Assembly (NCBI GenBank): GCA_030141605.1
Contig: JAQGDQ010000003.1
Location: forward strand, 930,001 to 994,000
DNA length: 64,000 nt
Origin: Tubiluchus corallicola
Taxonomy: Eukaryota; Animalia; Priapulida
Direction: 5' to 3'
Below are positions 1,532-61,369 of the stretch, piece after piece. Positions within the stretch are counted from its first letter, which is position 1. The number at the start of each line of letters is the position of its first letter. The notes below the pieces were generated by a model. The model saw nothing but the letters and a program-made list of their open reading frames with translations, did not search any database and was not told where the DNA came from. The translations under genes were made by a program, and so were the position numbers.

Positions 1532-23148
<21,617 letters not shown>

Positions 23149-24450: not shown

Positions 24451-26900
24451 AATTTTTGTCGATTCAGTAGTTGTAATTGGATGACCAGAGTTGGTCGGTA
24501 GCGGCTAGACTAAAGTAACAGTTGCTCGAATTACATTTCACAACATCATTTAGTACGTATGTTAGTGGTATAACAGACAATGATAGCTTTGGTAAGGTGT
24601 TCAGTTTTTAGCAATTATATTTTAGTAATCGTGTAAATAAATAGTGTTTAAATCAATCGTTACGCGTTTCCTGTGTGTTTTCAACGTAGGCCTATAATTT
24701 CTTGTTGGTAGACAAGAAACAGCTTTAAAATAGTAACTGGTGATTTATTATTTATCCAAAAAATCTATTCATTCATGTAGGTTTAAATAATTACATTTCG
24801 CGTTGTAATCGTTTCTCAATTTAATAATTGTTTTAAGCAGCTATATTTCTATAATCTATGCAATAATTTAATTAATGGCTATATGATAAAAGTGTTTATA
24901 GTAAGCTGAGTAATATGCTTTAAACTACTGGCGTTTTTGCATTCAAAAATGTTCTACGTAATTATAATGTAGTCTCGTTTATTTTGTTAATTATGCACGT
25001 GGCTATGTAATTAGGTCTTGGGAAGTTCAATACCACAATAAATATTATTAAGTTTTAAATAACGTCAGTTAAATGTATTTATGATACATCTTTGTTATAC
25101 ATGAATTTTGCGCCGGTTTCTTAGTTTTTGTGATGAATGCTACCGTCGAAGAATATTACGGTGATGAAGCAGGACCTGTTGGGTGACTGCAATTGAAAAA
25201 AATGAAAGTGATCGTATTTTTTAAATTCTCTCTCTTTGTGTGTGTGTCGCTTCCTCTCTTGCGCTCTCTTTCTCCCTGTCTGTCTGTCTGTTTTCTTATT
25301 TCTTTCTCGTATATGCATGAGAGGAAATGGTGCTGACCAGTAACAATCAGTAGTAGTGTCCGTAATCAGTGGGAATGAGTGGCTTATTGGTATAAGTAAC
25401 CATGACCTACCTGTAGGACTAGGTGACTCAACTTTTTTCTACGCATAATCAAAGACGTGTTCAATGATTTGGACACATCCGCTATCCCCAAGTAAGCCTT
25501 TTTTCCAATAATGTAACATAAGTTTGTTGGAATAACACAATGTGACGCAGCATTTATTTATTTGGTACCAGAACAACAACAACAACGTATTTAGTATTGA
25601 ATAGAATGGAGAGCCATAAAACCAAGTCCTGCATAAAGTGCAAAAGATAATTATTCTAACACAAACAGCGTGCACTGCATCGCAGTTTGAATCTAATAAG
25701 GCGAGGGTGAACAGTCGAGTGATACAGACTTATGCTTCGCGTTCAAAGTTAAGCAATGCCGAGGCGATCATTGGTTAGTTCATGACAGCCTGCGTTCGAT
25801 ACTCGCACTGGGAAATTTAATTTGCTATATTGCTTGTGACTTTTTACCTCAATAAGGGAGGATGTATATCATCCGAATATTGGCAAGACACCTCTGGCAA
25901 TCCAGTGGCTCATACTGTCCACGTATGCTCATAAAAATTCTCAATATTTAAATTATAACAATATGCATCAGTAGATTTTTTATTTAAGTTTTCAACGCAT
26001 TTTTGCGCTAGCCGTACTTGGTTTGCCACCTTTTTTGTCACTCAGTGCTACCCACTGATCCATATCAATTACGTAGTGTCTTTGTGGCTATATAATTAAC
26101 ATCTATTGAAGTGTGTGTACCAGTTCCATACAGTGAGCATTAATTAAACAGTTAAAGATGTCTTTTTAAAGATAGCAAAAATGTCTTTTTTTAATATGAT
26201 CAACAATAGCTCATATTAATCAACAAAACTTTATTTGTACTTTACACTACACAAGAATATTCCACGTAATACTTTTTCCCAAAATTGACCACTTATAACA
26301 ACTTTCGATACTTTTGGGATTCAGGACTCTAGCAACAATATGTCTGTATGAGATATGTATAGTTTGTCCAACCTATTTCATTGTGAGTTCAGGAGACATT
26401 TTCCTAATTTTACAAGACGCTAAAACATGGCGATTTACAAACTACATGAGTAGTACTAGAATAATTCCCGGTTGAACAATGATAAAACGTAGAAAAAATT
26501 ATTCATTTGAAGCTGAGTCATCAATGATAACAAGGAACACCATCAAGTATCAAGTATTAGTTCTCCTAGGTTACAAAAGTAACTTTATTTACAGATGACA
26601 ACGCAAAGCATTTTGTACATAGCTTATTTCGGCTAGTGTTAAATTGATTATAATGGAGAATACTTGAAACCTTAAGAGCTGTGGAATACTTACACAGTTA
26701 TTAAATAACCATTTCATTGCATGATAACATTCAAAGTCGTTAATGTTAATTTTATAACAATTTAAATTCAGTAATTTTGTTAAAGATGTACATACAGAAA
26801 ACAATGTATTAAAATAAAATCAAAACGTTAACAATAATTACATCTGACATCTCAACGAGACCACTTTTGGAATTTTCTGAACAAGGGCAGCCTTCTCCGA

Positions 26901-27593
26901 TTACCATGTGTGGAGGTATGCGTTACCCGGTATTCCTAGTTTCCGGTACAAGTGAGATCCATAAGGTAGATACGTTTGATGAAATTGGTGTGGAAATATT
27001 GGCGAATGGACGTGATCATACGGAAATCTCACTCCATCAACTCGATAGTGCAGTGTCTGTTGTGAGTTGTAACCTCCACCGCCACCGCTGCCTGTAAATG
27101 AGAAGTCAAATGTTCGTTATTTGACTAATTGACTCGTTTTACCCATTCAATAATTATTATGGATATAATTATAAAGCAACAAACATTTTATATGTTTTGA
27201 TGTTTGTCCCACAATTTTTCATAGCGTTTACTCTACCAGGATAAACTAGTGTGGGAGAAGTTACCATTTAACTAAAAAAAAACTTTCATTCATTCTCCTC
27301 TGCCATGGAACAAACTATACGTGTCCACGTGTTTTATGTACATATCCATTGTCGTTAAATAATTAACAATTGCTTTTTAGTGCTATAATTCAATTTCCGG
27401 TGTGACGACTGCTCACAAGCTATTTCTAACAATATTATTATTAAAAAGTCCCGCAATAAAAAATTGAAAAGCGCGACAGTTTAGAAATTCAATCACCTCT
27501 GCATTACCTTCAATTCTTCATACCTACTATTGTACTAAACACGTCCGTTACTTACATGGTATTCTTACTATTATGTTATTAGTTATCTTTTGT

Positions 27594-27662
<69 letters not shown>

Positions 27663-27960
27663 TGTGGTTAATATGTGATTATGTTAGAAATGATTTTCTG
27701 CAATTTGAAAAAAGTGTGGTATTTCAGTACAGCAGTGTATGCTATATACATTGCTGTACTAAAATACCACACTTTTTCAAATTCGTTTATTGCGATTCTT
27801 TTTTATCAAGTTCTGTTTTGTCATGAAACAGTTAATAACAGTCATGTCATAACAATTCCGTTGGTACTACATTTAAAATATAGAGCAGCAGTAGTTGACA
27901 CTTACCGTAGGCCAAGCAAGCCAATAGAAGGCACAAGCTCAAAGTTAAAAGCCACTTCAT
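26901..27960 (-). CDS. Uncharacterised 81-aa secreted His/Tyr/Gly/Pro-rich peptide (gene A)
   Basis: Exon 1 27960-27906 (MKWLLTLSLCLLLACLAY + G, donor gtaagt) and exon 2 27091-26901 (acceptor tttacag) join in phase 1: MKWLLTLSLCLLLACLAYGSGGGGGYNSQQTLHYRVDGVRFPYDHVHSPIFPHQFHQTYLPYGSHLYRKLGIPGNAYLHTW*; AATAAA on minus at 26584-26589; tail paralogous to gene B. Confidence 0.85.
27595..27658. repeat. (CT)n microsatellite in gene A intron
   Basis: Direct reading. Confidence 0.97.
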
Positions 27961-29537
27961 TGTTCACGAGTTATCTGTCAACGGCTTCTGAAGACAAAGT
28001 GACAATTTTTCGACAGTTTCACAACCTACATAGCAGCAGATGACATCATTGTTACAGTTCAGTAAAGCTGATGAGATTGGATGACTTATCTAGGTCTTTC
28101 ATGATCATAATGCCAATTTAAATTTTATTGATGCGCGTTGATGATTCTGTCGTTCTGTCAATTTTTGTTTTTGTGCCATGGTCAGCTGTAAAAACTTTTA
28201 CGTAATTTTGATGGGTGCAATAAAGTGAAATTACTACCGTAATAATAGTTATTGCACATGTTTCTTTTTGAAACTTCCTAGGCACAATGATTTTTGGTAT
28301 CATGTACTTTACCAACACATATAAGCATATAATAATCTTACAATTGCATGGTCCTTTTCATAAATGCATTAAATCAGTGCAAGACTTATTTCAGTCAGGG
28401 TAATTAATTTACAAATTACGGTTTGTTTGGCTTTCTAGAAACACGTTTCTGCTACACCTAAGGGCTGTTTTTACAGTTACGAAAAGAAAATCTGAGTAGC
28501 TTTTACGTATAATATCGAAATAAAGATACCTCAGAATAGCAGTAAAAAACCGCTGTTCACTTTTACCATAATACCTAGCTCATAATTTTTTGTTCCATTG
28601 ATAGCATATTCTAGTCTGTCATTATAATAACGTAACTTAACATTTAGTTTTCAAGTGAAAGTGTTTTATAGAGCGTGTAGAACCGCAACGTGACAACAAT
28701 GTAAATTATAAAATCTGAGTTCATCCGAGCCGTGTCATTCCGTGACGATGCTTGTAGCGCGTCCTAAAATTTTATCATTCCGTTTAATCAATATAGGCGA
28801 CAATGATTAAAATCTACATGCTTTTGGTATTGGCCAACTGGCCTACATAAGTTGATGGAAAATATATGAAAGTGAAGGTTAGACAGTTGCTTATTGCGAT
28901 CACGTAGGTGTATCACTGGGACAGTTTTATAATACGCTCAACCTACTCATACCAATTTTGAGTAGCTGGATCGGCACTTGTCAAATTTTGAAGCCTATGA
29001 AAAGCCCGTTTTCACCAGAAAAACTGTTTCCTGAATTTACCAAAAATACTTTTCGTTATATATATATAACGAAACTATATAAATAGTTTTAATGCCAAAT
29101 TGATCGTTCGAATTTTTAGGTCGCACCTTGTTTTTCGCAACTGATTTTATTTTACAAAAAGGTTATTAGTTAACCTAAACTTTAGGTTTGTTTTTAAAGA
29201 AAATATCGGAAAGCATGCACGCATGGTGTGTTTTGGGTCACTTTTACTGGAGTTGTGGTAAAGCGACTTTGTGAGCAAGGCTGAAATTGATTGCTTTTTT
29301 ATACAGATTGACGAAATTCAGCCACATGAGACAAGTAAGAAACTGTGACTAGAAATACAGGTCTTTAGAAATGAAATTCTTAATGATACTTTATTATTGA
29401 TGAAATTAAATTTAATTGAAGCTTTTATTGCAGAATCACATAAAGAATAACAACAGTTCTGCGTAACATATGTGCTATATCACAGCAACAACAAATAATG
29501 GTCCTTGCAAACAACACTTATATACATGTATATATTA

Positions 29538-30154: not shown

Positions 30155-30457
30155 GGCAGCCACTGATGTCTTCTTGCCTTCAGTGCAGCCACTGATATCC
30201 TCTTGCCTTCGGTGCAACCACTGATGTCTTCTTGTCTTCAGTGCAACCACTGATTTCTTTTTGACTCCGGCGCAGCCACTGATGTCCTCTTGCCTTTAGT
30301 GTAGCCACTGACACCCCTTGCCTTCAGTGCAGCCACTGACGCCCTCTGCCTTCGGTGCTACCACTGATGTCCTCTTGCCTTCAGTGCAGCCACTGACGTC
30401 CTCTGCCTTCAGTGCAGCCACTGACGTACTCTTGCCTGCAGTGGAGCCACTGATGTC
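30155..30457. repeat. 28-29 bp minisatellite, about 11 units, consensus cagtgcagccactgatgtcctcttgcctt
   Basis: Head-to-tail units; the consensus contains the inverted repeat tcagtg-cagc-cactga. Confidence 0.92.
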
Positions 30458-30658: not shown

Positions 30659-30825
<167 letters not shown>

Positions 30826-32050: not shown

Positions 32051-35000
32051 TTACCAATGGTGTAAATAAGGATTTCCAGGAATCCCTAGCCCCCTGTAGA
32101 AATGTGAACCATATGGCAGATACGTTTGGTGAAATCTGTGCGGGAACAAAGGTTGGTGCACGCGGTCGTAAGGGAAGCGGACACCTTGAACATTGTAACG
32201 AAGAGGATAATTGTGCTCCTTGCGTTGATGATGGACACGTTGAGGGTATACCACTGGCCGGACTGCAACAACTTTAGTTGGCTGTTTCTCAATAGCTACT
32301 TCCTCTGGCAATTCTTCGACGACAGATACCTCAGTTGACGCTTTTTCGACATTTTGTGGTTTCACTTCCAGTTGTTCAGATGGTTTTTTGCATTTGGTGA
32401 AATCAAGAAATGGACCTGCGGTTGGTATCGCTTCGTGTTGTCGTATTGAGCCGCTGGCTTCGTGATAACTACCAGGCCTGTACGTGTAGATATGAAATTT
32501 CTGTATAAATTCTTGTTGCATTGCACATTAATGAGTGTATTAACAACAGTAAAATTAATAAAAGAGAAACAAGTGAAGCCACAGTGAAGCCACTTTTCAC
32601 AAGAATCGAGATGGCAAACTCAGTCAAAAGTGCGACCCTATTATGTTCGACAAGAATTGCTCTAAATGTTATTAAAATCAAAATAAGCACTTCAGCTTTT
32701 AATGAATATGACACTTCTACAAATTTATAGAAAATTCGGCATTTTATATTTGCATGAAATTTTGAATGGTTTGGATTATAGTATGTCAGTATATTCTGGC
32801 GTTTGAGGTTCAAAAATCACTTTAATTCCAATGTTCAGAAAACTAAAATTTGTTAGAAAGAACACCAATCCATTTCTGAGTAGTCAGTTTAACAGCAATA
32901 ATGCATAAATTCTAGCGCTAATTTTATCGATTTACCTGTCTGGTATTAGCAAAGTCACACCATCTAAATTAACATCCTCTTCTGTCCCGTCTCCTTTTAT
33001 TGGTTTAGTAAACGCTAGTTGCTGAACATCATCAAACCGTCTTGCACCTACTAGTTCACAATTTTGAATAGCATCTATCTTGGGTGGCGTAGCTCTATCT
33101 TCGTTATACCTTACGTGGTAAACACTAAGAATTAGTGCAGGGAATATCGTAAATATATATGCACAGTTTGAAGAGCAGAAGATTCTATTCCACAACATCT
33201 TTTGTTCATAATTAGTTTTCTGCGACAGTTTTATGCAGTTAAATTTGTTGCATGTATGGATACTTTAACAAATAAATAAAATAAAATAAAGCTCATCCAG
33301 TATGCCGCACAACCAAAAAGAGCAGCAGCCACGCAGGTGGCAGTCAGTTTTGAGAGTGCTATTTTTTTAGAAAGTTTTTGTAGTGCGCTTGCTGGAATTG
33401 AACCTTACGTAGGCAGATTGCTTTGCGCCAGGATAGCGGTGTCATTGTTAGCTTGCAAGACTAAAAAATCGACAGCTTGCTTATGTAACAGAAAAGTACT
33501 TTTTGCAAGCTCAGCGTTTAAAGACTACAGTGTTCTTTCACAAAATACAAAAACAATTAGGATTATACTTGCTAATTTAGTTTCAGCTTATATATACCTA
33601 CCCGTCAAAGATTGTGCCTTTACCATCACTTGTTACCCAACCATAGCAAACGTCGGATTCAGCCTGTATAAAACATTTCTGGTTTAATTTCATTAGATTA
33701 GCTTAATCTTCAATCTTGCACTTACAGATTAAAAGATCAACCACCTGCGTGCTAGTTTGGAGAGAGGAAAGTTTGAAATCTATTCTATATATAAAAGTCA
33801 TGCGTAATTAGTCTCACATTTAACTCTTATTGAGCTGCTCTGGAGTTAACCATGCTTCCCATGTTTATGCCTTGAGTGCTGGCTGGCCTCAGTGATTTGT
33901 TTACCTGCTGAGAGTTTAATTTCGTGTAGATTAAGTGCAATTATTATGGCTTCGCAAAAGTGAAGTTTGTATAAAACATTGCGAAAACTTATTTATGAAT
34001 AGAAAATTGCGAAAAGATGTATTGCAGAAAGCAAGATTGAGAAAAAACTGTCTCAAACAGGTTTGAAACCAAAAAAGTTGCAGAAAAGCAGTGTTAACTG
34101 ATATTTTAGAAAACAACTTTCTGCCTCAATCACACACATTTCATTCGAGCACCATAAAGCGTTTTAATCTAACATAGGGAAAACAAGTCCAGTGATATAA
34201 ATCGTATAAACACACGAAAGCAATGCTAAATTAGAAAAGTTTGTAAAAGTTTACACTACCACTGGAACTCGAACTCAGGCCTTCTGCTACCCGGCCAGCT
34301 ATGCTAGCCACTACAACCACAGAAACACTCATTATACTCATATACTCATTACTCACCTCCTCAACCTTTATTGTATTTGGGACTGACCTAAATGTGTGAC
34401 TGTTTACAGAAGTACACCAACCGAAAACTTTTTTTATCTCGGACTTTACTAGAAGTCCAGAGTTCTTAGGTCAGCAGATAAAATGGGATCGGAGGGAATT
34501 ATTGGGAAAATATATGTTAAGCTGAAACAAGCAAGGTATTAAAGTGCAAAAATGCAAGTTAGCTTGTAATAGCGTTCTGAGCATACTCTTCTTTTTAAAG
34601 ATACCGCGCGGTTGACAAAAGGTTACCGTTGGTGTACTTCAATGCTTTGCATGCAGTCTGCGTTACCATTTGTAAACCGTTCTTTGAAAAGCCGAGTCCA
34701 ACCCATCCAGCAGTGCGAACAGTCAAAATGAAGAACACTTTGCCGTCTTCTGGCTCCGGCCAATACTCGAGCGCGTAAGTTTGGTCCTTATTGATCCATG
34801 TTCCATGGCAATCAAGACCTAGTTAAATATGCAACAATAAATTATTTATCCAACAATCAAACAAACAATCAGTCAGTCAATCAGTCAGTGAGTCAGTAAT
34901 GTCAAAATTGGGTGTACTTCATCGGTGTACTACAACGATTTTAAGCCCATATGCCACACTCTTCTTCATCGCAGAATGGGTACATGCTTGCGGGTTGTCG

Positions 35001-35318: not shown

Positions 35319-35607
35319 CATGCACTGAATGTTAAAATTAGTGAAGGACTTAAAGCGCGTTAGGCGTGAATTAAGATACAGTTTTCAAAAATTGCTGTTT
35401 ACAATTCACATTACTACGCAGTATTATTACAAATACAAAACTATCTTACTCTACAATGAAGCAGCTAGACTAATAATATCACAGCCATTAGGAACTTTAG
35501 GTACTGCATGAAAGAGACAAAAAGATATATCACAAGAAGGTGATAAAAAAGTACTTAACGGCTACACTTACCTTCAAGTGGTGCTACCTCTGGTAGCGTT
35601 TGTGCTG
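32051..35607 (-). CDS. DOMON-domain protein with Glu/Val/Pro-rich linker and His/Tyr-rich C-terminal tail (gene B); first exon unresolved
   Basis: Phase-consistent exons 35607-35572, 35110-35087, 34818-34667, 33663-33602, 33109-32936 (alternative in-phase acceptor 33124), 32477-32051. Translation includes VFFILTVRTAGWVGLGFSKNGLQM/AESDVCYGWVTSDGKGTIFDG/YNEDRATPPKIDAIQN...LAFTKPIKGDGTEEDVNL...GSIRQH, fitting the DOMON pattern GWVGLGFS..G.M..SD...GW...D.Y...P..D..Q...F.R...D...H; AATAAA on minus at 31979-31984. Confidence 0.85.
34258..34324 (-). mobile_element. tRNA-derived SINE head in gene B intron
   Basis: Minus strand tgtggttgtagtggctagcatagc...gagttcgagttccagt carries A-box-like and B-box-like motifs. 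Confidence 0.5.
35224..35314. repeat. (GA)n microsatellite
   Basis: Direct reading. Confidence 0.97.
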
Positions 35608-36235: not shown

Positions 36236-39002
36236 AAGTGTAATGAATTTCTCGTTTAGTAACGTAAAAATATACCTGCTATTATCGGAAGAAGCAACAA
36301 GATTGAGGGCTGCATGCTTTTTCACTGAAAATGTGACGTAGTTCAAACTTGTTTTGCAGTGGAAGGCTAATGTTGATGGCAACCTAAATTGTGGCATCAG
36401 TTTTCAGTGTCATTCGTTTTTATTGCTGAGAGACGTTTCAAGTTAACTAGGACATTTTTATGAGCCAAATTTGGCATTGACTTTTAAGTAGCACCATAAA
36501 ATTCAATTGTGGTAATAGAAATTCGCCGGTGGTCATTTGTAGGTGTGAGAAACGTACCAATATTGCATCGAACTTGGAAAATTTCATGTGTACCATGAGT
36601 TAAAGTAGGACATTTTCTCCTGGATAATGCAACCAATTTTCATAATCTTTTTAATACTTAATGGGACTTTTGACATTACTTAAAGAGAGCAAGATCCTTA
36701 CTACGTTTCTATAAAAGTTCAAAATAACAAGATAAGACTTGATAGGATAACAATCCTAATCGATTTTGTAACTTAAGACCGTAACTTTTCCAAGTTCAGC
36801 GCGCCATATCCACGCAACACAACACTCTCGCTTCCAAGCCGTATATATATCTGTTCAGAGATTTTGTTTGATGTTGGTGCAGTGGCTTATGTAAAAATAA
36901 AAGAGCTGATCTGAACTTCGAGAGGCAGTTAATTCTCCGTTTAGCTACGCAAGTCACTTTAAAAGTTTGGAAAAGGCACTCTTTTCAAACGCAAAAAGTG
37001 TGAAGTTCTACAAGGGCTATTGACGGTTGTGAGACCCAAAGTTGTAACACGTTTAGACTATGCCTAACTGCAGCACTGTATCACTTTAAATTTTGTTTTA
37101 CTTTGAAAATCATACAGCTGAAGCACTCGGAATCGGACTCGAACTCAGACTCCAGCAGTGAGGACTAGACGACAACAAAATGAACTGAACGAAAGTGAAC
37201 GGTAAAGAGGGTAGCGTCTTTCTCTACTCAGCTATCGTTTTAATAGAAATGAAATGATAAACAGATAGATGAAACATTATCGTTTACAAATAAAAATATC
37301 AATTTTCTAAAGTGATGAAAGAGGATACAATCACTTGTTAGAATCGCAAAAGCACAACAAGTAAAAGCACAAGGAAAACACTGTAGAAAAGAGCATCACA
37401 GGCTGTAATCAACGTAACTGGGAAAAAGACACAAACTTATGAGAGTAAAAAGATTTTGTTTCCCCCTTTATTCCCTGTGTCTCTTTTTTTCCACCTGGCG
37501 GTAAACTGCAGCCGGCGATTTCAAGCGTGTTTTTCTTTTTTCATTGTTTTAACTATTCGATTATTTTCATTTTTAATTATTCGACTATTTATTAATTATC
37601 ACTCTTTTTGCCACTAAGAATTAAATTTAAGTAATTTTGCATTTATCATGCAGATCTACTAACTCTCGTGCAAGCCAAATTTCGAAAATAGAGTGAAATT
37701 AAAGTAATCTAATGCTTGGTGACCGAGTTGTTGCTATGCCGAGCGTCGCGTCAGTGCGAGTAGTTTCAGTCAGGTCCCTAGGGCTGTGAATTCGATTTGA
37801 GTGAAAGCAGTCACGTCACATGTGATGTAAGCATTGACATGAACCACACTAGCCAGAACACCACTAAACAGAACTGAGAAATACTCTATTAAGAAACTAC
37901 AAAAAAAACCGTGAATAAGTGCGATGTCTTTATGATAAACAGTAAATAATGTCTTTATGATAAACTTATGATGGTTGTGACGAGGGCCGAGGCATATTAT
38001 TACTATAAAGACCTTTTGACTAATAAGCTGTAATTAAGACTGTACAAATTTTATATTTGTATTGTTTAGTAAATCGTAATGCAGATTATGTAAAGATGTA
38101 ATTAATTTAAATTGTACTGAGCTTCCTTGTAGCGTTTATTTGGATGCTCTAATCGTCGATTTGTAGTACATACTAAAATTTGCAGCTGTAGTGCATCGTT
38201 CTTGTTTTTAGGTATGTGTTTGATTTTTGTTTTGTGATGTTAACTATTTTGTGTGTGTGAAAATTTAAGTAGAACTAGCGAATGCCTTTTTTTCGAGTTT
38301 CCATCATACTAGTGTCCATCTCACAGCACACTGACACACGCTACTTGACGAGGTTCAGGCACCACGTTTTCACGCCAGGCTAGAGAGTACATCACGCCGG
38401 AAATGACGTCACCTATTTCCACCAAATTGCTTGGCAGTACACTGAATGTGGGTATGTGCTATGACTAGGTATAGTGCAAGCGGCGCGAAACTATTGACTG
38501 CAGCTTGATACAGCGTGGTATGAATTTGTGCGGTTCGATTAGACATGGTGCGGTGTATTGTGAGGATGTGATAGTCCAGCCCAGTGAGGTAAAGCACACA
38601 CGGTGATCACTCCACCCAGTTGTTATCCAACCCCGACTGTTTTACAAACGAAGCCATTTGGAATAGTGCAGCACTCTGTGAATCACTTTGGAATTTAGTA
38701 TTAGGAAGTCCAAAATCCACAGCTGTGCCTAAAACTCACATCACGCCGATCAATGACCGCAGCCAATTCAGCCAGCACACCATTAGCATTTCACCATTAC
38801 CAAATAACGGTGTGACTAGCTTTTAATGCTGTATATAGGACTTATACTGAGCTAAACTGACTTCTCAACAGGCATTATGGAGTGACGAGCTTCGTATTTA
38901 GTACCTTGTCTATTTCTGTAGCCAAAGACTTTGTTCTGAACGCCATATATTTATATGTACATTACGTTATCGCAGGGCATTGTACCTGTTCAACCTACTT
39001 CT

Positions 39003-48405: not shown

Positions 48406-51400
48406 ATGGGAAAGATTGTTTTTAAAGGAGGGCATGTGAGACTGTACAAAACTCAAAAACTGCAGGTAGGTGCAACAAGTAAACAACGTTATTTGCACCT
48501 GCATCAGAATTATGAGCAAACTCGGCATGTGTAAACTGTTGTATGAGCTTCTACTGACTTTTTTTCCAACAGGTTTCTAAAGCCATAAGCCAAAATGTTG
48601 TGACAACGGTTCTTATGGAGCGGGAAATACTACCTGACGATTTTATCGCGTCTGATCTGCCCCAACTTTTTCAAGGGGATACTGATACTGATCTCAACAG
48701 TGTGTGCACGAGCGTAGCTGTTGTAAGTATAGTTTATTCGTACAACGAGGACATCATCAATGAGGGCTAGGGGTAATTAACATGTGGCTAAAGTTTACGA
48801 TTCCCCATACACAACAAATTAGTTCGTGGAGCGGATTAGTATCGGGGTTAGAGTTGGGGTTAGGGTTAGCATATTTAATCTATGTAGGGAATTGTAAACT
48901 CCTTCCTTGAATATTACAAGCAGAGAAATGGAGAATAGGAAAAAGCATTTTTAAATCTAATATTATTGCCATAAACACACGTAGTTTATTACACTTGCAA
49001 AAGTTCTGCTCGAAATTTGCGGAATACAAATCTCGTAAATTCAAATAATGCAAATTATCAAATTTTGTAAATTCCAATAATTGATATATTTGATTATTCC
49101 GCGTTATAGAGACATTTGTGTCCGATGTGTTCAGTGCAGAATTTAGACGTAGTGAGGTTACAAGTTATAATAATAAAAGTTGGAAATCTTACGTAATAGA
49201 ACATTGGTTCGCCACAATTACAACAAAAATCTATGGATAAAATGGATGCTAAGCGCAGGTAGTTTCTTTTGAGACATGGTTCTCCTCAGAACATTTTTTA
49301 TTCTTGCTAACATATCGTTGCTGTCAGACATAAGAATAGTTATACGACGACGGAAGCTAAAACCGTTAGGCGGAATTTTTATTTCATAGCTCTTGGGATG
49401 TTGTAGGTGAGATAACGGGCAGTCAGAATCAGATGCATTCAGCAAAAAGTTCTTGTTTTCTTCGTGGTTCTAACTTTGCTAAGCAAAAGTATATATGACT
49501 AACAAAACTCTAACATATATGATAACATCACCAAACAAACACAAACAAACAAGAAAATGATGAGACGTTACAAGCATTAAGCCATTAGCAAAAACCGTAA
49601 TTTACACTCATAGCCAGAAATTTCATATAAAATAACCGATGTAACAAAACTAGTCGACTACTAAGATTTCTACGCAGAAACTACTAGCTAATAATTAATT
49701 ATCAAATGCGAAAAGCTACATCTGAGTCTTCTGACGTATGACACTCAGTTGACTAGTGTCAGTTAGCTGACAACTAATAACGAATCAAAACTTTCCAGAG
49801 CTTAAATACAAAATCAGCGACTTGAACAGGTTACAAAAGCGACAACAAACTATTAAACTACCGGATACCAAACTAAGCAAGCAGTTGGAGCCAGAAGTCA
49901 CTGTAAACAATAAGTAAAAACTACAAAAAAGCAGCCACTGCGCTACACCGCTCACTCAGCCACTAGCGTGGTAACGTAGATACGGGAAATCAAACGGAAG
50001 GGAAGTTTACAGACTCACCCGGGTGTAGTGTCCTCTAGCGGTAATCGCTCCAGAGTACGCTATCACACCGCGACAAGTTTGAATACAGTGTGTATATAAT
50101 ACAGCCTCCATACTAGGCAGCCTTATCTTCGAAGATATTTATTGCAGATCTGGGTGGCAAATTTAGTCTTTTTCTAGATAAGTCAGTTGACATTAGCAGT
50201 ACCTGTTTTTATTACTTGGACTCGGACTCGGACTCAGACTAAATCTCGAAAAGTGAGGACTTCAATAATAATAGCAAGTCATTTGTTCTCACAGTATCAA
50301 TAATTGTCGGCGGAGTTGATGATAATATTCGAAGTCTTGTAGTGTAGTTATTGTAGTCTTGTTGTGGACGAACATAAATGTTGAAGTTGTAGATAAAAGC
50401 GTGATTGTATAGTTTATTGAAGTATAAGAATCTTCATAATACAAACGAAAGAAAATGAACGCTTTACGCGAGAGCAAATAAACGTCATTAAATCACAAAT
50501 CATAATTCAATTCTTAACAGTAAGCAACAAGTCTACTGACTCGCAAATCGATAGTCAATAACTATTTTTAGAACATCTTACTTAACAACAATTAGCTTAA
50601 CACTGATTGGTTATTTGCATGACAGTGACTGTTAACTGTCAATCACCTGTGACGTCATCTAGCTCCGCCATTGGTCAGCAGCATTACAGGATATCACAGA
50701 GATGTAACTTGATCCAGAAGTTTGCCAGTGCTTAACATAGCGGCTAAATGTAACTAACATTGTATTGCATACGGACTGTGTTTTATGTTTCTAACTTGTA
50801 AGTAGTTGTTCTGTGATATTAATTTTATGAAAAATTAATAAATATAAATTATTTTAAGAAAGTATAAAATATTTAAAAACTTATAAAACATACAAAATAT
50901 TTGCGCTTCATCCTAGTACTCTCCTTTGCATAGTACACGTTGAGAATTAAACGACGAGGGCCTAAAATGAAGTTTTTATCTTTTCGTTTGTCCTTTTGCT
51001 CAAACATTTTTTGTTTACTTTAAAAGATACTAAATATAATTTTGGCTAAATAAAATTTGGCTGTTTGTAAGATTGTAAGTACTGCATGTAAAATAAATGC
51101 TTAAACTTATTAATCAATTCGGAACATTGTTTATGTTGCTTTTACTTTTCGCATAAAGACCTTAATAACAATATAATTACAAAAAAATGTTCACATCCTA
51201 CCTACATGTAAATTATGTGTAAGCCTAGCCTGGGTAATATACTGGCTGAGCAATGGAAAACGATGTGCAATGTAACGTAATGCTATGTAATGTGAATACC
51301 TATAGCGATTCTATGGCCTTTTTGTTTTTGTAGATTGAATTTCCATTTATTGGTGCAGTTGGTTCATTGGAATTCAATGAGCTAACACTGATTTCGACCC

Positions 51401-57767: not shown

Positions 57768-59250
57768 TTAAAAAATTCGAGAGGCATTAGCAACCACAAA
57801 CAGAACTATGGGGATTTTCATGAAGTTTCTTAACGAGGTGGCAGAATATTTATTTGTTTTGTGAGATGATTCCAAAGAATGACCATTAACTAATCGTAAA
57901 GCATAGTTTTGAAGTACATTTAATTTGATGTATGACTCTGTTTTCACTTTTTGGAACAGTATGCAGGCATATAAATAATGAGGCAAAATTAAAGTTTTGT
58001 AAAAATTTGAATGTTTGTTTGTTTTGATAGCTGTCCTCTGGTTTGTCGAAGGCACGAAGTACTTAATGCCATTTTTATATATGTTGATGAACTGCTCTTC
58101 CCATGTAAGCATATTGTCCAACTTAGCGCCTAAAAAATTAACAACTTTTTACTGCACAAAAACAGCATTTTCTATTTGCAAAGATATAGCAGCTAAATTT
58201 TCAGTATTGTTAATTGTTGGGGATAATACCATAAATTCTGTTTTATCACTATTCAGTTCTAGCTTGTAATAATTAAATGCAATGTTGATATTCTTTATGA
58301 CTTTTTCTAAGGACTGTTTTGCAATGCTGATATTCTCGTCAGCCAGATAAATAGTCGTGTCGTCTGCATATTGCGTAATACTTGAATGTTAGAACGTTAG
58401 AAATATTGTTGATATAAAGGTTAAACAGTAGAGGTCCCAACAGTGCGCCCTGCGGGATACCTCGTTGAAAGTCAGCCCAATCTGAGAATGTTGTAGAGTT
58501 TATTTTAACCCGCGGCTTTCCATTTTGTAGGTAATCATTAATTAATTTTAATGCTGATTGTTCAAATCCAAGTTCTTTTAAATTATCTAATAGTAGGGTG
58601 TGATTTAAACTGTCGAAAGCTTTACTTAAATCTAAAAAAGCTGCTGCCACATATTTGTTTTTATCAAGATTATCTCGCCAATTTTCAGTTACGTTTATTA
58701 CAGCATCGACAGTTGAATGTATTTTTCTAAATCCGAATTGATGTTTCGATAAGAGTTCATTTTGATTGACATACGTAATAATTTGATCATAAATTACTCT
58801 TTCCCAAATTTTACTCAGACAATGAACTATTGATATTGGTCTGTAATTTATTGGTTCATCTTTAGCATTCTTTTTGTGGATTGGTGTAATATTAGCTGTT
58901 TTGCATTGATGAGGAAATTTGCCACGCATTATTATTTGGTTAGTGATATAGGTTATATGTGGAGCAATTAAATGCATAGTGTTCTTTAGAATTTTTATTG
59001 GTATGTCAGATGTGCCACTACCTTTGTTGGCATCTAAATTATTTATTATTTTTAAAATATCAGCAAAAGTAACACTGGAAAATGAAAATTGGTTATTTGC
59101 AGGTCCTACAGTTTTTAGTTTGTGTTTTATGGTATCAGTATAATCATTCCGCAAATTAACGTTTTCGAGGTTAACAAACGTCTCATTTAACAAATTTGCA
59201 ATATCTTTGGGTTTCGTTATTGTAGTATTGTTGATTTTAAGTTGATTTCA
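57768..59250 (-). mobile_element. L2/CR1-group LINE ORF2 reverse transcriptase, 5'-truncated and frameshifted
   Basis: NYRPISIV, QFGFRKIHST, AAFLDLSKAFDSLNH, GIPQGALLGPLLFNLYIN; after a frameshift near 58375, QYADDTTIY; then FLGAKLDNMLTW and LQNYALRLV. Confidence 0.93.
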
Positions 59251-61369
59251 TTTTTCAATTCACCCCACAAATCTGATTATGTTGTATGTGTGTTTGCATT
59301 TCTCGTGTATGCGTATTTCTTGGGTATGCGTTTCTCGTGTATCCCGTGTTTTCATTATCTGTATGTGAAGACCTAGCATCTTTCATTATTCGACCGGCGT
59401 TAGAATGGTCCTTGTTATTGCCTGCACAATACGAGGTGGTCAATATAAACGAGCTAGGCCTATTCACAAGTTTAAATAACGTTGCGTAAAATTTGAAATA
59501 ATAATCACATCATTCTGGCGCATTCTTTGCTAACTAATCAAACGTTTAAATTACTTTGTATTGTCAATAAGATCAATAATGTATTTTTTGGTGAATCAGC
59601 AATGCATACTGGGGACAGTGCCGCTTTACCAAGTAAGAATTTTCTTTTCCAATTACATAAGTGTTTCAAACAGGTAATGGCAATGTTTAGTAATATAACT
59701 TTGCATGGAAAGTTTTTTCGAATATATTTTAGAATTCTCTTCTTTTTTCCTTTAAATCCTTAACTGTCCATTTAAACGATGACTTTTTTGTTTCTTATCA
59801 CATTACCTTCTTATAAGCGCTCCAACTTAATAGTCCATACAGTTTACCAGTTATCACGACTCTCTACATCTATATCGTTACAATCTTTAGCTTTGTGTGG
59901 ACCTCTCTTGTAACATAGTACAACCACTTTCGTTTATTTGTACACCACAAACAGCTTACCCCCTTTTTTATATACCAACAGCTCATTTGCTAGAAAGTGC
60001 ACTTTCGAGTTATATGTAGATAACTGTTGTTTTTATTTCCACATTCCAGTGACTTTTTGTATTTCTTGTTCTTTTCTCAGTATTTCGTTTACAGTTCAAA
60101 ATCTAGAAAATGGAACTGATTAATTTTTAGGGGTTTTTGTACGCGTTCTTATACGAATTTGTCTTTTCATGAAGAGAGTAGGCCTGCCACAAGGTGCATA
60201 GAAACGTCTTACTCGTCCTAGAAAGAAAAACTTAATTTGCTACGTTCAAGTCAACTGGCACTCTTAGAAAAGAAGTGGCTACTTTCATGTTCAATAAGCT
60301 GATTTATTCCAAGATCAATAGAACATAGAACATCATACACATATCCACACAGGAGTGGTATTATTTTGTTGGTAAGTCTATTCTACTGCATGTTACGTTA
60401 CAGAGCAGTCGACTCAAGCGTTTAAAGACTAGGTTTTATGTGATTTTCAGTACATCGCCTGTATTTACATACAGGGTTGATTAACTGCAGTTCAGCAGCA
60501 TTAACTGCTTGCTCCTATATACGTGCGTGAAAGTTCTGTCGGAACCGGTTGCATTGAAAATTTACACCTGAATAGGCTCAGGCTTGGATAATTACTCCAT
60601 TATGAGCTCATGACACCGGCTGTAAGCTAGTACTACACGGTCACTACGCGTTTCAGCGTCACCATCGCGTCTACAAAACATTAATAAAATTATAACTGTG
60701 CTTGTCCAGGTAGAGTGTTTCGAAACGTCAGACGCGAGACAGGTAACTATGTATTTTCTATAATAACATTGATAACAATGAAGATAATAATAACAATGTA
60801 AAAACAAATTGCAGATTTGCATTGTAATGCTAAATTAAATCAACTATTTTGCCTTATTGAAAATAAAATGCCAAAGCGCAAGAACACGTAATTTAATAGT
60901 GAATTTAAGAGAAGTGATACAATTGATTGTAAATGTATTTAAACTTTTAATTCAGGGTTTGCAGAAATAGTATAATTGTCTTTAAGTTTTGGATGTGCAA
61001 CGAAATTCGGTCACACTTTACCAACTCAAAGTTCAAAGTTTATCTTCTCATCACTATCTAACTAATCACATATAGGTGAACGGACTAAGAAAGCAGCACA
61101 CAAATTGTTAGTGAAAGATTGTCTTGTAGGGCGGATAACTGATAATTTGAAATGACACGTATATAGGGTTATAGAGAGAGTTAAGAATACAAGGGTGAAT
61201 ACAAGGATACTAGGAATGAGTGGTCAACAAGTGTGCTGAGTCATCTATGTTAAGTAACATCGAGCCACTCAGGAAGTAGATGGGTGACCATCGGGAAAGC
61301 TACTCTCGACTGATTATCTCGTTATGGGAAACTCATATACGCATTCAAACGTGGTATTAAAACGTGGAT

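Follow-up and report, generated by a model that had tools for sequence, protein, structure and literature searches.

The locus

The stretch of DNA analysed here, 64,000 nucleotides long and referred to as the window, is AT-rich animal DNA (GC about 35%), and two minus-strand genes, gene A and gene B, lie in it tail to tail with a Na/K-ATPase alpha gene (Table 1). Exons of the ATPase are at most 79% identical to the nearest proteins, two of priapulid type (among the best 120 of 4888 matches to one exon), and in trees of 24 and 10 rows, the smaller one omitting long-branched, fused and redundant rows, the protein groups with two priapulid-type sequences (100/99), a placement that is that of one gene, among rows with no identified mollusc, echinoderm, hemichordate, tunicate, nematode or kinorhynch. 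AU tests, in which the groups were named after the 24-row tree had been seen, reject a grouping with the annelid (p 2e-5), with vertebrates (p 4e-5) and with crustacean-type rows (p 5e-4). A priapulid-like ecdysozoan is, on this evidence, the more probable host. Judged by eye, the ATPase has non-vertebrate residues at diagnostic columns, which makes analogies with tunicates less apt.

Several other features are spread over the window. On the minus strand, a 302-aa reverse-transcriptase ORF at 58342-59247 (Pfam RVT_1, E 8e-26), with a frame-shifted ORF behind it at 57771-58148, looks like a decayed LINE-type retrotransposon, and just upstream of the reverse-transcriptase ORF lies one copy (59468-59757) of a dispersed repeat of about 300 nt whose other copy, 65% identical, is found at 4755-5060. 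Imperfect inverted repeats at 6810-7088 and 14153-14350, both in introns, are probably small transposon remnants, and a 165-codon stop-free frame in an ATPase intron (15525-16022, plus strand), with no Pfam match, is probably due to chance or is a repeat remnant. Between gene B and gene A, a 29-nt minisatellite of 10.5 copies (30156-30457) adjoins an (AAT)56 run (30659-30824).

Table 1. Features of the locus, with positions in the window.
Feature	Position	Strand	Remarks
Na/K-ATPase alpha	1532-23148	+	20 exons mapped, 1013 codons open; first coding exon outside the model
Candidate polyadenylation signal AATAAA, gene A	26584..26589	-	Consensus match only; another at 26235
Gene A last exon	26901..27091	-	191 nt; Gly-Ser-Gly5 start, short polar stretch, 50-aa core, stop
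50-aa Tyr/His/Pro/Gly orphan module, gene A copy	26904..27053	-	From sequence comparison with gene B
Gene A intron	27092..27905	-	814 nt, GT..AG
Gene A coding exon 1	27906..27960	-	55 nt; ATG, Lys and Leu/Cys/Ala-rich core, a predicted signal peptide; phase-1 donor GTAAGT
Gene B last exon	32051..32477	-	Probable end of DOMON, Glu/Lys/Pro/Val-rich linker, module, stop
50-aa orphan module, gene B C-terminal tail	32054..32203	-	39 of 50 residues as in gene A
Gene B DOMON exon 3	32936..33109	-	Pfam DOMON profile 65-112, E 0.021, 15.5 bits
Gene B DOMON exon 2	33602..33663	-	62 nt
Gene B DOMON exon 1	34667..34818	-	Pfam DOMON profile 2-40, E 0.0015, 19.2 bits
Gene B 36-nt exon	35572..35607	-	Phase 1-1; resembles, by eye, the loose 5' end of the X2 contig
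Gene B predicted signal-peptide exon	36276..36315	-	13 codons + 1 nt, phase 1; outside the X2 contig

Gene A encodes a small, putatively secreted peptide

The two exons of gene A join in phase and translate into an 81-aa open reading frame with a stop codon. The initial annotation had described such a hidden two-exon signal-peptide gene, and its coordinates turned out to be exact. Both splice sites score highly, the donor among the top 3 of the 3535 minus-strand GT sites and the acceptor among the top 4 of 3749 AG sites, with a matrix trained on plus-strand ATPase introns alone (19 donors and 20 acceptors). This matrix is known to be imperfect, since it scored a gene B acceptor at 33124 above the one at 33109 that is backed by a joint in the X2 contig described below. 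Exons that combine an ATG, a hydrophobic core and a phase-1 donor occur only twice in 128 kb (both strands), at 27960 and at 36315, the second being the signal exon of gene B itself; eight exons in phases 0 and 2 that pass a loose version of the filter indicate that the filter alone is not specific. Based on 205 Mb of simulated Markov null DNA, the chance of finding such an exon in the 4.9 kb from the stop of gene B to the acceptor of gene A is 4.7% with the loose filter and 0.16% with a strict one, whose thresholds were picked after the exon had been seen.

Directly 5' of the gene A ATG stands an in-frame stop codon, and a weak AG acceptor at 27988/27987 (score 2.9), 27 nt 5' of the ATG, may mark the edge of an exon preceded by a 5' UTR exon, or trans-splicing. 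An AG also sits 9 nt 5' of the signal-exon ATG of gene B (window 36325), and this shared arrangement suggests that both genes depend on a leader further upstream or on trans-splicing. Candidates for such leaders are a TATA-like box at 28670 and strong, unexplained donors at 50019 and 43417. The last exon of gene A has no in-frame ATG of its own and is therefore missing from an ATG-based ORF list, which explains the absence from the ORF track pointed out by the initial annotation. Within the intron we observed an (AG)32 microsatellite (27595-27658) and an imperfect inverted repeat (27702-27783), probably a small transposon remnant.

Two sequencing runs bear on the two genes. Run X1 spans introns without splice joints and so behaves as DNA; over 151 bases of the gene A last exon it shows a single variant, at 27045, which is synonymous. 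Run X2, counted as RNA by guess and derived from a related animal, gave no match on the gene A exons at 85% likeness, gaps in it being evidence neither way. Taken together with the evidence from gene B given below, gene A is very probably transcribed and spliced across the 27906/27091 junction, with cleavage of the predicted signal peptide.

By the -3/-1 rule, applied by eye, predicted cleavage after Ala17 or after Gly19 would fit equally, leaving 64 or 62 residues. The part after residue 19, hereafter peptide A, consists of 62 residues, including 7 His, 7 Tyr, 9 Gly and 5 Pro, with no Cys and a Ser-Gly5 start, and the composition had been counted correctly in the initial annotation; the label "His-rich" that it attached holds only in a moderate sense, the contents being 11% His, 11% Tyr and 14.5% Gly. 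AlphaFold2, run on an alignment of two rows only, returned a pLDDT of 50 and a pTM of 0.10, values that carry no information on the fold. A 10-residue repeat was considered and rejected, its p of 5e-5 having been obtained with a post-hoc motif and rising to 0.10-0.16 by unbiased self-alignment.

Gene B and the shared module

Gene B consists of six minus-strand exons, from 36315 to 32051, which are open throughout and encode 295 aa, in the order of predicted signal peptide, DOMON-like domain, acidic linker rich in Glu, Lys, Pro and Val, and 50-aa module. When exons were scanned separately, two of the three DOMON exons matched the Pfam DOMON profile in order, each below the cut-off of 32.7 bits and with a summed score of 34.7 bits; the 20-aa exon between them gave no Pfam DOMON match. 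The DOMON-like part has a Met after the G-F-S strand and His residues near the domain end, candidates for the Met/His haem ligands of DOMON domains. A single contig of run X2 (704 nt, depth 755; 571 aligned bases at 92% identity) carries gene B exons joined over three introns exactly as modelled, which indicates that gene B is spliced in the related animal, given that the run is RNA. The contig stops inside the linker, 5' of the tail, and in the window linker and tail form one open exon; no match on the gene B tail was found in run X2 at 80% likeness, where again gaps are not evidence in either direction. The linker is longer in the contig, which lacks 6 nt at one point and seems to carry one more repeat unit. 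Among the coding variants of gene B listed from run X1, two are silent and one replaces a Lys by Asn in the Arg-Lys pair that precedes the tail (one contig, depth 13). Poly(A)-like signals follow directly after the gene B stop.

A tblastn search with the mature peptide revealed a second copy of the module 5 kb upstream of gene A, at 32203-32054, with 39 of 50 residues identical (78%, E 1.7e-24). At the DNA level, similarity is 67% over 141 nt and ends at the common stop codon, and no similarity was found in introns, in flanks or between the two signal exons. The two copies differ at 36 of the 50 third codon positions, at 11 first and at 7 second positions, and 28 of the 39 identical residues are encoded by different codons, so that pS is about 1.0 as against a pN of 0.17 (Fisher p 6e-20). 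Within the core, all Tyr (6/6), Pro (5/5), Gly (4/4) and Phe/Trp (4/4) residues are conserved between A and B, as are 5 of the 7 His, the other two being His-to-Arg swaps. Saturated synonymous sites combined with a low pN mean that the duplicate is old and that both copies have been translated and held under purifying selection since. Both module copies are thus under purifying selection, and this constrained paralogue in the gene B tail is the strongest evidence for the reality of gene A, a small gene that had not been listed before and whose twin was unexpected. A third copy was not found within the window.

We infer an old tandem duplication as the origin of the pair, for which two routes can be envisaged: gene A would have shed the DOMON and linker part and acquired a new acceptor, or the module would have been captured by a DOMON gene. 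With the module retained both on its own and at the end of a DOMON protein, the pair is a clean example of tandem duplication in which a domain was either gained or split off. Small two-exon genes for secreted peptides are easily missed by annotation, and gene A is one that is backed by a constrained paralogue.

Searches for homologues

Relatives of the module were sought in several collections, and blanks are to be read with the reach of each search. A profile built from the two copies (two rows and 62 columns, hence of limited reach) gave no match at E<=0.001 over 1,835,955,588 cluster representatives, libraries outside which unannotated animal genomes lie. No candidate homologue was found among proteins of 34-109 aa, and none of 51 candidates among longer proteins was accepted. 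Neither peptide A nor the gene B last exon had a usable match in the Atlas, where blanks prove neither absence nor novelty; the best hit of peptide A among PDB sequences had an E of 0.16, and none of 71 viral stretches held a homologue. Pfam returned no family at E<=1 for peptide A and none at E<=0.1 for the gene B tail, and Rfam returned no matches. In metagenomes, the one stretch of 329 that passed (L001; 28 residues, 50%) was dismissed as a chance match, since it runs antisense in a 512-aa bacterial ORF, next to ORFs that are presumably ribosomal-protein-like.

Our literature searches found nothing that carries sequence words of peptide A, nothing relevant on DOMON in connection with His-rich, adhesive or cuticle themes, and nothing on cuticle proteins of priapulid-like animals. 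Neither peptide A nor the gene B tail could be tied by sequence to a known family of cuticle or matrix proteins. Secreted peptides restricted to one lineage are common in invertebrates, and the 50-aa module, an orphan in the libraries searched, may belong among them.

Possible roles of the module

Composition cannot by itself tell a matrix protein from a ligand or a defence peptide, and the paralogy with the C-terminal tail of gene B, which the initial annotation does not bring up, is the chief clue to the function of peptide A. The initial annotation had offered three roles, antimicrobial, metal-binding and sclerotising, of which the sclerotising or structural one fits best and metal binding is possible. 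Our preferred reading, at a probability of roughly 0.45, is that the module is a lineage-restricted "sticker" for matrix or cuticle, present free in gene A and as an anchor for the DOMON domain in gene B. Gene A would secrete the bare 50-residue module, which would bind to or be cross-linked into the extracellular matrix, probably the cuticle. The peptide is probably flexible, offering aromatic and His/Arg residues with Pro and Gly as spacers, and it would grip the matrix through cation-pi and metal-His contacts before being fixed by Tyr oxidation, halogenation or quinone-His adducts. In the gene B protein, the module and the acidic linker would keep the DOMON domain, a predicted binder of haem or sugar, fastened to that matrix. 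The conservation of the aromatic residues, together with the His-to-Arg swaps, is more easily reconciled with aromatic and cationic stickers than with a metal site of invariant His, and slow evolution at the end of a DOMON protein is in keeping with an anchor.

An antimicrobial function dependent on pH or metal, of a His/Pro-rich and non-helical kind, is one alternative for peptide A, with the gene B tail as a cryptic form to be freed by proteolysis. The peptide is small, predicted to be secreted and devoid of Cys, its computed net charge climbs from +2.5 at pH 7 to +8.5 at pH 5 (the gene B tail reaches +4.5 at pH 7), an Arg-Lys pair precedes that tail in the window allele, and Pro-rich and Gly-rich antimicrobial peptides without helices do exist. 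However, the top helical hydrophobic moment of 0.52, matched by 41% of 1000 shuffles, gives no sign of an amphipathic helix, the motif scan detected neither H-x3-H nor HExxH nor an N-terminal x-x-His, and the C-terminus lacks an amidation Gly, a Trp preceding the stop. The Lys of the Arg-Lys pair is moreover the one changed to Asn in run X1 (again a single contig of depth 13), and the 78% identity has been retained despite saturated synonymous sites, whereas paralogues of defence peptides usually diverge fast. We therefore regard this role as unlikely, and the analogy with histatins and clavanins drawn in the initial annotation fails on the missing helix, motifs and amidation Gly and on a charge of only +2.5 at pH 7. 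A module that docks specifically, or serves as a ligand, and takes up its fold on a partner, with peptide A acting as a DOMON-less competitor or tuner of the gene B protein, would account for the near-complete conservation of Pro, Gly and aromatic residues, which is tighter than usual for low-complexity matrix proteins, for the lack of a significant internal repeat (p 0.10-0.16), and for the adjacency of two genes that each have a signal exon; it would call for a partner and for co-expression of A and B, and we hold this explanation to be improbable.

Two further alternatives question gene A itself. The exon at 27091-26901 could be an alternative last exon of gene B, as the initial annotation had envisaged, or the two genes could have a common non-coding leader, the exon at 27960 being incidental. 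From 36276 and 35572, the two phase-1 donors of gene B upstream of its DOMON exons, the exon would indeed be read in frame, and an AG does stand shortly 5' of the ATG in both signal exons. Against this, the donors that follow the DOMON exons are in phases 0, 2 and 2 and do not fit, the donor of the 27960 exon ranks in the top 3, such an exon has a probability of about 0.2% of arising by chance under the strict filter, poly(A)-like signals lie right behind the gene B stop, and the product would in any case remain a secreted free module. With a strong signal exon of its own 814 nt upstream and these signals at the end of gene B, a separate gene A is the simpler reading, and the alternative-exon account is very improbable. 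That gene A is no more than a relic silenced recently, or exons put side by side by chance, and yields no peptide appears hardly credible as well: no match to gene A came from run X2, but its frame is intact, its splice sites are strong, purifying selection has acted since an old duplication, and the sole X1 variant in the 151 covered bases of the last exon is synonymous, a weak point as it concerns a single site.

The matrix reading can be pressed further, into a form to which we would grant only a small chance. The module would then be a new matrix-address domain restricted to the clade of priapulid-like worms, by which gene B pins a redox-type DOMON domain into the cuticle and gene A secretes the bare module as a substrate to be cross-linked or brominated there. 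If true, the two genes would make up a hardening kit and give a first molecular entry to the sclerotisation of scalidophoran cuticle or teeth. Should the host be a priapulid-like ecdysozoan, the module would be a short, synthesisable candidate for cuticle hardening.

Comparison with known systems

Histatins are primate salivary peptides, and an N-terminal x-x-His motif is one of their features. Like peptide A, they are secreted, contain His and Tyr and are probably unstructured in water. Histatin 5 carries HxxxHH and HExHH zinc sites, as described in PMC10004757; both sites are absent from peptide A, which gave no sequence match to histatins in the libraries searched. Clavanin A of Styela clava forms an amphipathic helix of 23 aa, is amidated and bears an i,i+4 His site (PMC10004757). 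Clavanins share with peptide A secretion, His residues, lack of Cys and a charge that goes up at acid pH, whereas peptide A has 62 residues and 5 Pro and offers no amphipathic helix, i,i+4 His pair, amidation Gly or sequence match in the libraries searched. Its features thus fit clavanins and histatins poorly, as these are described in PMC10004757 and PMC13518417.

Structural proteins offer closer parallels. The His- and Gly-rich jaw protein of Nereis is, like peptide A, a secreted invertebrate protein containing His, Gly and Tyr, in which Tyr halogenation is plausible. It has 27% His (PMC6477608), as opposed to 11% in peptide A, which is also much shorter, has far less Gly, no low-complexity repeats and no sequence match to the jaw protein in the libraries searched. 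Bromine on phenyl rings has been described in mechanical structures of several phyla, a priapulid among them, and bromotyrosine has been reported from nereid jaws, both in PMC8410824. In arthropods, moth scale structure depends on cuticle proteins with 10-15% His, and a 45%-His cuticle protein cross-links with laccase and quinones, according to PMC8062583. His-rich cuticular proteins of that type (RR-2, low-complexity) resemble peptide A in having a signal peptide, no Cys and, in the members described there, 10-15% His; peptide A differs from RR-type proteins in showing no Rebers-Riddiford match, either in Pfam or by a spacing motif.

For gene B, the nearest parallel is insect Knickkopf, a DOMON protein that organises cuticle and whose DOMON domain is predicted to bind haem or sugar (PMC4140639). 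Knickkopf and other extracellular DOMON proteins resemble gene B in the order of signal peptide, DOMON and a conserved C-terminal region of their own. To these parts Knickkopf adds a pair of DM13 domains, some 200 conserved residues in one stretch, and anchorage by GPI or in the membrane (PMC4140639), none of which is present in gene B, whose 50-aa tail in turn also exists as a separate gene. A protein of 295 aa without room for DM13, and without a hydrophobic C-terminus or GPI tail, is not a Knickkopf. By analogy with these systems, peptide A, while a member of no family tested, would act most like the matrix proteins that bear His and Tyr.
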